32,000 nt of DNA. It comes from Candidatus Heimdallarchaeota archaeon B3_Heim (GTDB lineage: Archaea > Asgardarchaeota > Heimdallarchaeia > Hodarchaeales > Hodarchaeaceae). Below the pieces are notes generated by a model. It saw only the letters and a program-made list of their open reading frames with translations. It had not been told where the DNA came from and ran no database searches. Location: contig NJBF01000036.1 in the NCBI GenBank assembly GCA_003144275.1, positions 1 through 32,000 of the forward strand, given 5' to 3'. Positions 15,252 to 16,924 of this stretch are shown here, piece by piece; the stretch's first letter is position 1; each line of letters starts with the position of its first letter. The translations under genes were made by a program, and so were the position numbers.

Positions 15252-15797
15252 ATGAATTCAATTATGTCACAAAATGAATCAAAACAGTGGTTATTACCTA
15301 AACGGGCATTTGATGATTGTTTTGGTTGTGCTCCGCACAATACGAAAGGACTGAAGCTTCAATTTTGGTATACAGAAAAAGGGTGTATTAGTTACCATAG
15401 TATACCTAAAGAGTATTGTGGATTTACGGGATTGGTTCATGGAGGCATAATCGCTACACTTCTAGATGAAGTAGCTGCCTGGACCATAATAGCACACCTA
15501 TTTCGAATAGGTATTACTGTCCAAATAACGGTAAAGTATCTGAAACCCATCCCGACAGAAGAAGAGTTAATAATTCAAGCGGAGATTCTAGAGCATAACG
15601 GGGAAAACGTCACAGTTCTTGCGAGAATCCAGTCTAAAAAAGGACTAATTCTTGCAGAAGCTCAAAGTAAATGGTTGATTCCGAGTAACACGCTCCTAGA
15701 AAAAATCACAGGTTTAAACTCTCAAGAACTAAATCATTTACTAAAGGAAACGATTGAGCCAATTCAAAAAAAGCAATTAACACATCAGAATGAATAG
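15252..15797 (+). CDS. PaaI-family (hotdog fold) thioesterase
   Basis: CFGCAPHN..GL, GLVHGGIIATLLDE and YLKPIP motifs. Confidence 0.9.
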   Translation: MNSIMSQNESKQWLLPKRAFDDCFGCAPHNTKGLKLQFWYTEKGCISYHSIPKEYCGFTGLVHGGIIATLLDEVAAWTIIAHLFRIGITVQITVKYLKPIPTEEELIIQAEILEHNGENVTVLARIQSKKGLILAEAQSKWLIPSNTLLEKITGLNSQELNHLLKETIEPIQKKQLTHQNE

Positions 15798-15978
15798 CAA
15801 TTTGCTCTATAGCAAGAAAGACATAGTTTCTACTAATTTAAATGAAAGATAATGACACTAGTTCGAAATAAACCAAATTATCACCTGGAAGATCCAATAT
15901 GGAAAGATCCAATACCTCCTCCTGAGAATTTACCTCAGATTTTGCTTCGATGCTTGATCTCATTGCGTTAAATAGCCT

Positions 15979-16195
15979 AGGTATGACTAGATTTGTCAGA
16001 CAACTCTTGAAAAGAGTTCTGGACAGGATGAGTCACACATCCGCTATCCGGCAGATTAGCACCACTAAAAGGGTTACTATTCATTGGGACTACTTGAAGC
16101 GTCCTTACTGCTGATATCCCCAGCGCTAATACCTCTCACGTCTAAAGGGTCATTCTTCTCTTGCCTTTGACGGGTAACTCGTCTCACGTAGTTAC
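15979..16195. ncRNA. Candidate structured non-coding RNA, family unassigned
   Basis: No long ORF; higher GC than the flanks; about eight back-to-back hairpins; long-range AGGTAT (15979-84)/ATACCT (16129-34) closing helix. Strand not resolved. Confidence 0.4.
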
Positions 16196-16453
16196 AAGTG
16201 AATAAGACCCAAGAAGTTAGGAATTTTTCTTTTCATCACCTCGCTTGGAAGAGGTTATGGAGGGAGGCTTTTTATGAATGTAAGAGAGAGGGAGAGGTTA
16301 GCGAATACGAGGAATCTCGCTTTGTCGGACAAAAATGATCATGGAGTAAGGAAGAAAAAAATGTACCGGTTAACGAACTATGACTAAAATGCCTCTTAAA
16401 GTACCTTACTTCTAACCTTAATCATATGAATAATCGTTAAGAGACGAATAAAA

Positions 16454-16924
16454 ATGCCAAAAAAGAAAAGGGGAAGAAAGGCAGCAGTCCCAAAAAAAAC
16501 AACTGCTGAAAAAACAGTAAAGACGATGCCATTATCAAAGATTTATGATTCAACTTCCATCTACACAACCCATCCCATTAGGAATTACGAGATTTCAAAG
16601 AAGTTTTATGAAGATATTTTAGAGTTACCAGTTAATCTGGAAATTCCTATGGCGGGATGGTACGAATTCCAATTACCTGTAAAAGGCGCAATGTTAGGTT
16701 TAAGTCAATATCGGGAAGAATCGGGTGAATTCAAACCTGCGAACTCGTTGAATATATCTATTTCTGATGTAGAAAAGGCCAAAGCCTCACTTGAATCAAA
16801 AGGAGTATCAACTTCTGATATTATTGACTATCCTGGTATGGTTTCAATGATTTCCTTCGAAGACCCTGATAAGAATAACATCTTTCTTATTGGTCCTCCC
16901 AGAGTAAAGAACAGTGAGAAATAA
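16454..16924 (+). CDS. VOC (glyoxalase/bleomycin resistance) family protein with basic N-terminal extension
   Basis: SKKFYEDILEL, WYEF, LNISISDVEKAKASLESKGV and SFEDPDKNNIFL motifs; extra N-terminus MPKKKRGRKAAVPKK. Confidence 0.85.
   Translation: MPKKKRGRKAAVPKKTTAEKTVKTMPLSKIYDSTSIYTTHPIRNYEISKKFYEDILELPVNLEIPMAGWYEFQLPVKGAMLGLSQYREESGEFKPANSLNISISDVEKAKASLESKGVSTSDIIDYPGMVSMISFEDPDKNNIFLIGPPRVKNSEK

Follow-up and report, generated by a model that had tools for sequence, protein, structure and literature searches.

The omega RNA of ISDra2 overlaps tnpB at its 3' end and lies directly against the guide. Its scaffold measures 116 nt and has four stems, the nucleotides just upstream of the guide form a pseudoknot, and a more 5' part is dispensable (PMC10097598). 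Gene-less PATE-like elements of Geobacillus often encode omega RNAs and need TnpB in trans (Meers et al. 2023, 10.1101/2023.03.14.532601), and standalone mobilised omega RNAs working in trans have been summarised by Altae-Tran et al. 2023 (PMC10691335). The PATEs of Haloquadratum are transposase-free elements that arose by core deletion of IS605-type transposons (PMC3119063). IS607 elements are described as having no terminal inverted repeats, a GG core and a serine TnpA (Zedaveinyte et al., 10.1101/2023.11.20.567912). Some TnpBs are accompanied by Cas1 or by IS630-type DDE genes, with Cas1 variants known from Asgard archaea too, and TnpB clades with a rearranged RuvC-II are thought to stay active (PMC10691335).

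The window analysed here is a stretch of 32,000 nt from Candidatus Heimdallarchaeota archaeon B3_Heim (contig NJBF01000036.1, positions 1 to 32,000). An earlier note, made from the letters of the window, had singled out a multi-hairpin element at 15922-16195 and offered it as an orphan mobile-element RNA, a riboswitch-like leader or a new class of non-coding RNA. The true unit is 15983-16343, with its sense on the minus strand, and it is very probably a recently transposed copy of a 361-bp non-autonomous mini-transposon derived from a tnpB-only insertion sequence. The first of the three suggestions was thus essentially right: the stretch carries the guide-RNA scaffold region of a TnpB transposon, on a gene-less mini-element. 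Guide-RNA-only mini-elements of TnpB have already been published, so that the element is of a known kind and not a new RNA class, and the candidate can be removed as such from the annotation. It adds an Asgard-archaeal (Hodarchaeota-type) case of guide-RNA-only mini-transposons, with TnpB probably borrowed in trans. Like the standalone omega RNAs and PATE-like elements it is short, gene-less and multi-copy, keeps its ends and scaffold, and occurs alongside full-length tnpB. PATE-like elements have subterminal hairpins and no inverted repeats, whereas this element has a 22-bp imperfect inverted repeat and CATG at both junctions; it also keeps the tnpB upstream region and a 47-nt coding-derived stem-loop, and Y1 TnpA was not found in the genome. 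The Haloquadratum PATEs are an archaeal precedent for numerous deletion derivatives of the tnpB type, but they were defined by the absence of inverted terminal repeats and their guide-RNA content was unrecognised then (PMC3119063). The features of the locus are collected in Table 1.

Table 1. Features of the mini-transposon and its insertion site, in window positions. Pairing is the percentage of paired positions in alignment A1 (42 copies folded as a consensus) against its shuffles, with the number of 500 shuffles that reach the observed value; because the copies are related, the shuffle controls overstate significance.
Feature	Positions	Strand	Pairing, observed vs shuffles	Remarks
Whole mini-transposon	15983..16343	(-)		sense = tnpB sense; sharp-ended dispersed repeat; 361 bp
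Left end, 22-bp terminal inverted repeat CATGATCATTTTTGTCCGACAA	16322..16343	(-)		0 mismatches to family consensus; palindrome TTGTC-CG-GACAA inside
Retained tnpB upstream region	16233..16282	(-)		A1 columns near-invariant; A/T-rich box ~16266-16282; GAGGTGA and ATG at 16233-16244
47-nt stem-loop module (LVTTSDGLLVKG)	16156..16202	(-)		outer helix and inner GACG/CGUC hairpin; RuvC-I coding origin
Outer helix of 47-nt module	16156-16202		97.6% vs 94.5%; 0/500	4 pairs change on both sides
Variable linker	16098..16155	(-)		poorly conserved across A1; replaces ~440 nt of tnpB in long elements
Predicted omega-RNA scaffold	15983..16097	(-)		matches 3' 115 nt of full-length tnpB elements; TnpB C-terminal remnant
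Variable hairpin	16054-16082		93.9% vs 75.5%; 0/500	6/6 pairs change on both sides
GGAUG/CAUCC	16026-16042		99.0% vs 99.0%	invariant, no two-sided change
GUGACU with AGUCAU	16031-16036 with 15983-15988		98.8% vs 98.8%	invariant, no two-sided change
Terminal hairpin	16003-16017		95.5% vs 70.7%; 0/500	
Right end, inverted-repeat partner ending ...TTGTCTGACAAATCTAGTCAT	15983..16004	(-)		reverse complement = left end at 17/22 positions
Predicted guide, flank beside right end ACCUAGGCUAUUUAACGCAAU	15962..15982	(-)		first base uncertain by 1-4 nt
MFS remnant, first 12 codons (MLDLIALNSLGM)	15950..15985	(+)		91.6% DNA identity to related genome L029 up to 15985
MFS scrap, 28 nt, codons around VDHGISKKK	16336..16363	(+)		overlaps left-end terminus by 8 nt

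The genome was searched with the 656-nt gap between the two neighbouring genes as query. Query positions 186-546, which correspond to window 15983-16343, proved to be a dispersed repeat with sharp ends. A profile search yielded 24 full or near-full copies in the genome, together with fragments truncated where a contig stops. Compared with the window copy, 5-7 copies were 98-100% identical, about 10 were about 78% identical, and the rest went down to 67-75%. Full-length copies were also present in 4 of 21 genomes of the same genus, and all 20 copies fetched matched the model end to end; no match to the element was obtained in 19 genomes searched from other families of the class. Alignment A1 comprises 42 full-length copies from five genomes. 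At 68-100% identity, they all share the same 361-bp architecture and the same deletion junctions. The mini-element looks as if nothing in it were protein-coding, since the short open reading frame after the ATG differs between subfamilies. Metagenome contigs from four marine-sediment sequencing runs, placed on 15700-16600, covered only 15983-16343 and left the flanks (15700-15982 and 16344-16600) bare. Their loose ends begin exactly at 15983 and 16343, which independently confirms the boundaries of the element. The conserved modules at 16010-16070 and 16134-16195 were found at high summed depth in the marine-sediment contigs, the window flanks never, and relatives of the element appear to be common in these samples.

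The insertion site explains what the earlier note had described as a 650-nt gap of a gene-dense genome, a packing of stems in which it took as a sign of function. In a related genome (L029) the thioesterase gene orthologous to window 15252-15797 is followed by an intact 400-aa MFS_1 transporter gene, and the element is absent from this site. In the window, the first 12 codons of the transporter run directly into the right end of the element, and a second scrap of the gene lies at the left end. Between the two remnants 131 nt have been lost, and so has the remainder of the gene. The gap is therefore an insertion in a transporter gene that has since been largely deleted, and should be annotated as a gene destroyed by a mobile element. 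Both native break points in the transporter gene are CATG sites. The second reads CATGATCA and so resembles the left terminus, suggesting that an adjacent deletion ran through the terminal sequence; either of the two junctions may be the original insertion site. A second case of mobility was seen on contig C88, where the 3' part of a tnpB gene harbours a nested copy; homologues without the interruption have a single CAT-type site there and no length change. Recent activity is thus documented by copies 98-100% identical, by a relative in which the site is empty and by the nesting of one copy in a tnpB gene. Two arms listed in the earlier note, CTGAG/CTCAG (15922-15938) and AGGTAT, cannot belong to the repeat, as they fall in the remnant coding sequence beyond the element boundary or straddle that boundary.

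The sense strand of the window copy is opposite to that of both flanking genes (16454-16924 and 15252-15797), and the flanks of the other copies are unrelated, with both orientations relative to host genes represented. These observations bear on the possibility of a stand-alone new structured RNA, or of a riboswitch-like leader acting on a neighbouring gene. The many local stems would fit such an RNA, and so would the outcome of the Rfam search, which over the whole window returned nothing at gathering thresholds and, at E<=10 over 15700-16550, nothing beyond chance-level matches, so that no catalogued family is involved. Against it stand some 25 copies with unrelated flanks in both orientations, the derivation from tnpB elements, the absence from the orthologous site and the sense strand opposite to both neighbours, and we regard it as highly improbable. 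A riboswitch-like leader does not fit copies that lie beside unrelated genes in either orientation. Of the likenesses named in the earlier note, omega RNA pointed in the right direction, as the element derives from a tnpB transposon, but none of the Rfam matches at E<=10 was to HEARO or group I families. A group I intron or IStron was also considered and rejected, as there was no model match, copies occur in both orientations relative to host genes, and the boundaries cannot be placed within the duplicated CATG so that a U precedes the 5' splice site and the terminal base is also G.

The mini-transposon is best understood by comparison with longer elements of the same genome. At some loci only the first 115 nt matched, followed by a piece of 36-53 nt about 620 nt further on. 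These loci contain an open reading frame of 420-440 aa on the strand opposite to the window plus strand, which scores as an RNA-guided endonuclease TnpB (NF040570, E=4e-66; PF07282, PF01385). TnpB genes number about 16 in the genome, and six or more full-length ones belong to this subfamily. Over the left end, an internal stretch of about 50 nt and the last 115 nt or so, the mini-element runs colinear with the 1.4-kb parent, and it would have originated from a 1.4-kb tnpB-only element by two internal deletions of about 600 and about 440 nt. It has kept the left end with about 110 nt 5' of tnpB, including a Shine-Dalgarno-like GAGGTGA and an ATG; after the first deletion, a piece of about 50 nt from the RuvC-I coding region; and after the second, where a variable linker has taken the place of the lost DNA, the last 115 nt or so of tnpB and the right end. 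The linker holds the subfamily-specific stems GCTG/CAGC and CCTTT-GACG. The A/T-rich box in the retained upstream region is a candidate archaeal TATA box, with a putative promoter role. On the window minus strand the C-terminal remnant of TnpB is still readable, and the element contains frame-broken pieces of TnpB coding sequence. Such frame-broken coding pieces would also be expected of a tnpB pseudogene fragment decaying at random and without selected function. Chance decay could not reproduce the 361-bp architecture and junctions shared by all copies of A1 in five genomes, the ends are intact and the conserved blocks are far better preserved than the linkers, so this explanation can hardly be credited. 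The peaks of synonymous-site conservation in full-length tnpB coincide exactly with the two retained pieces.

In the tnpB sense every copy starts with CATGATCATTTTTGTCCGACAA and finishes with TTGTCTGACAAATNTAGTCAT, usually followed by G. The left end matches that of the full-length elements, where it precedes tnpB by about 110-135 nt. The window copy has A at 15982 after the right end, where most copies have G and thereby complete a CATG. CATG is present at both junctions in 35-40 of the 42 copies, and the sequence beyond is not conserved; the empty-site comparisons are compatible with either a target duplication or a copy of CATG borne by the element. The consensus fold contained no conserved left-end hairpin. 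These ends differ from those of the IS200/IS605 family, which has subterminal imperfect palindromes without terminal inverted repeats and needs Y1 TnpA. A likeness to IS607 may lie in the same short core at the left flank and the right end, which makes the boundary ambiguous, and in the lack of a clear variable target duplication; short inverted motifs within both ends and the existence of tnpB-only derivatives are shared with it. IS607 differs in that the ends here are inverted repeats with CATG, and in that no serine TnpA lies beside any tnpB, the one resolvase gene being unrelated.

Searches for a mobilising enzyme were made in the genome assembly, which is 94% complete. Y1 TnpA (PF01797) was not found there, although control genomes gave matches, and neither were Cas1 nor IS630-type DDE transposase genes. 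A single resolvase gene (PF00239, contig C2) adjoins none of the 22 TnpB matches. The sites in the genome that resemble the repeat ends all belong to one of three classes, namely mini copies, tnpB-only elements and solo ends. The element also differs from classical DDE miniature elements, as no cognate autonomous element with the same inverted repeats and a DDE transposase was found in this genome. A 2.6-kb stretch on contig C8 between two end-like sites was considered as a transposase carrier and discarded, since it encodes an 840-aa membrane protein. The protein (C8:61897-64531) has a HExxH peptidase-like motif (HELAH, read by eye), and its gene is followed by a solo end-like site, while a 33-bp end fusion lies exactly where the gene begins, an arrangement that looks like two independent footprints around a host gene. 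Three such 33-bp solo sites were seen, all with unrelated flanks (C35:1462-1494, C50:11147-11179 and C8:64499-64531). In these sites the left end is fused to the right end via a TTGTC-N-GACAA palindrome (CATGATCAAATTTGTCTGACAAWTTTAGTCATG-like), and they could be footprints of excision or recombination, or minimal elements.

The last 115 nt of the mini-element match the last 115 nt of the full-length elements, lie on the tnpB strand and end at the right end, and it is here that we place the predicted omega-RNA scaffold. The flank beside it is the predicted guide portion of a read-through RNA, as it directly adjoins the scaffold in the manner of the guide in TnpB systems already characterised (PMC10097598). 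The likeness to ISDra2 lies in a scaffold of about 115 nt of the same position and size that overlaps tnpB at its 3' end and adjoins the guide, with a guide-proximal pseudoknot, here predicted only, and a dispensable-looking variable hairpin in mid-scaffold. The differences are that neither sequence nor Rfam similarity between the two is detectable, and that the pseudoknot partner lies about 50 nt upstream compared with about 100 nt in ISDra2.

All nine stems listed in the earlier note are present, each at its listed position, and so are the 8-nt direct repeat TCTCACGT at 16134 and 16182 and the AGGTAT/ATACCT pair at 15979 and 16129. Folding of the single sequence gave little. For 15922-16195 the minimum free energy did not go beyond that of dinucleotide shuffles (z = -0.71 on the plus and -1.53 on the minus strand), the outcome which the earlier note had named as counting against a functional RNA. 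The best sub-region, 15983-16105, reached z = -1.74 (minus) and -1.00 (plus), and 16145-16205 with the 47-nt module gave -0.55 (minus) and -1.45 (plus). The case therefore rests on comparison with related sequences. For this, the copies of A1 were folded as a consensus, and pair counts were repeated with shuffle (500) and slide controls.

As shown in Table 1, three structures covary among the copies: the terminal hairpin, in which one pair is A-U in 22 and C-G in 17 copies, the variable hairpin and, within the 47-nt module, the outer helix. Of the listed stems, AACTCTT/AAGAGTT (16002-16018) stood as conserved structure with strong covariation in the 42 copies. GGATG/CATCC is conserved as well, with no variation and hence no covariation. 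The others did not hold: CGTC-AAAGG/CCTTT-GACG, GGAC/GTCC, GCTG/CAGC and the TCTCACGT repeat are confined to one subfamily, and in GTAACT/AGTTAC one-sided changes go uncompensated and the positions are better read as the loop of GACG/CGUC. GGAUG/CAUCC, together with pairing of its loop GUGACU to the 3'-terminal AGUCAU, could form an H-type pseudoknot next to the guide; covariation is uninformative on the pseudoknot helices because they never vary. With respect to strand, the consensus fold reached -27.0 kcal/mol in the tnpB sense vs. -19.3 on the opposite strand, with a covariation term of 3.6 vs. 1.1, and G-U cells outnumbered A-C cells by 144 to 14. The strand evidence favours the tnpB sense, that is, the minus strand of the window. 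Among RNA libraries there was one match, a 151-nt contig from a poly(A) metatranscriptome covering 16035-16185, which could be DNA carry-over or stem from a different copy, and from which strand, ends and expression are not readable.

A plain miniature inverted-repeat element would account for part of these data. Its conserved blocks and hairpins would be DNA signals for a transposase or recombinase, and there would be no functional RNA. The imperfect inverted-repeat ends of 22 bp, CATG at both junctions and the occurrence of the 33-bp end fusions as solo sites are in keeping with this explanation, the covariation of the hairpins is equally expected for DNA hairpins at a transposon end, and the support from RNA libraries amounts to the one strandless contig. 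On the other hand, a tenfold excess of G-U over A-C and a stronger fold in the tnpB sense are unexpected for a site in double-stranded DNA, conservation extends far past the termini, and conservation is highest in exactly that part which serves as omega-RNA scaffold in TnpB systems already characterised (PMC10097598). We consider the purely DNA-based explanation unlikely and retain the guide-RNA mini-transposon as the preferred reading.

The 47-nt module from the RuvC-I coding region is nearly invariant in the 42 mini copies. When 13 full-length tnpB genes with 69-100% protein identity were compared, identity at third codon positions was 0.90 over nucleotides 636-665 of the reading frame, which correspond to the module, vs. 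an average of about 0.5; over the last 85 nt of tnpB, which correspond to the scaffold, it was 0.8-0.88. In the long genes the module reads CTCGTAACTACGTCAGACGGNTTACTCGTCAAAGGCGGGG, and only a loop position varies. The outer helix is CUUGU/GCAAG or CUCGU/GCGAG in the mini copies and CUCGU/GCGGG in the long ones, a coordinated change. In a 57%-identical TnpB (L071, G010:C12, 2101-2133) the inner hairpin shows the compensatory change GACG/CGTC to GATG/CATC; of the two codons altered, one is changed synonymously and the other from Val to Ile. The TnpB loci of the genus with 36-45% identity lack the module. Judged by the coordinated and compensatory changes, the synonymous constraint and the absence from distant TnpBs, the module is a selected nucleic-acid element specific to this TnpB family, acting either as RNA or as DNA. 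A long-range pairing of ACUAC in the module with GUAGU in the 3' scaffold was rejected, as it comprises 5 bp only and its one-sided changes are uncompensated.

Inverted ends, the lack of a recognisable transposase and a 47-nt module that is also under synonymous-site constraint in full-length tnpB are the unusual features of this element. Conceivably, they may mark a TnpB transposon of a distinct type, one that has inverted-repeat ends, inserts around CATG, lacks a known transposase and depends for its propagation on an undescribed cis-acting stem-loop of 47 nt; we put this forward tentatively. If so, the stem-loop could be a second domain of the omega RNA, could serve in processing or autoregulation, or could be the site at which a mobilising enzyme recombines the DNA. 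With its inverted ends, CATG at both junctions, no recognisable transposase and a coding-embedded stem-loop under nucleotide-level selection, the element offers a test bed for the movement and RNA build of transposase-less TnpB elements.

For the guide-RNA mini-transposon we infer transcription, processing, TnpB binding and cleavage along the following lines. Transcription would proceed from the retained tnpB upstream region through the scaffold into flanking DNA. The resulting omega RNA would have the adjacent host sequence as its guide, and TnpB supplied by intact full-length copies, of which the genome has six or more at other loci, would bind it in trans. TnpB would then cut the matching empty site, consisting of the CATG-type motif and flank, whereby the element would be retained or re-copied. 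A transposase or recombinase, none identified in this assembly, would move the element into CATG sites. The TnpB of the family (L025:557-1828, minus strand, and other full-length copies) has Gly at the position aligned with the canonical RuvC-II Glu and NADYN as its RuvC-III motif, further differences from ISDra2; in the RuvC-II alignment to Cas12f, VIGYN stands opposite MEDL. The family thus resembles the clades with a rearranged RuvC-II, and its nuclease activity is assumed from published modelling (PMC10691335).

At 6-7 right ends out of about 36, the ATG of a long downstream open reading frame of 118-500 aa comes from the terminal CATG (C86:22166, C67:12463, C76:27831, C44:7890, C61:12382 and C30:79468). 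Some of these reading frames have N-termini that by eye resemble genuine gene starts. The element is thus often placed exactly at a start codon and in the same orientation, so that the predicted guide would consist of the first codons of the gene. Chance expectation for this placement is below 5%, a rough estimate not computed from annotation, and the excess may result from survivorship of harmless insertions. A second TnpB family, 23-28% identical to the first, has about 7 copies in the genome (C48, C63, C82:50842, C61:21737, C96:23843 and C38:58146), and it outscores the first against the guided_TnpB model.
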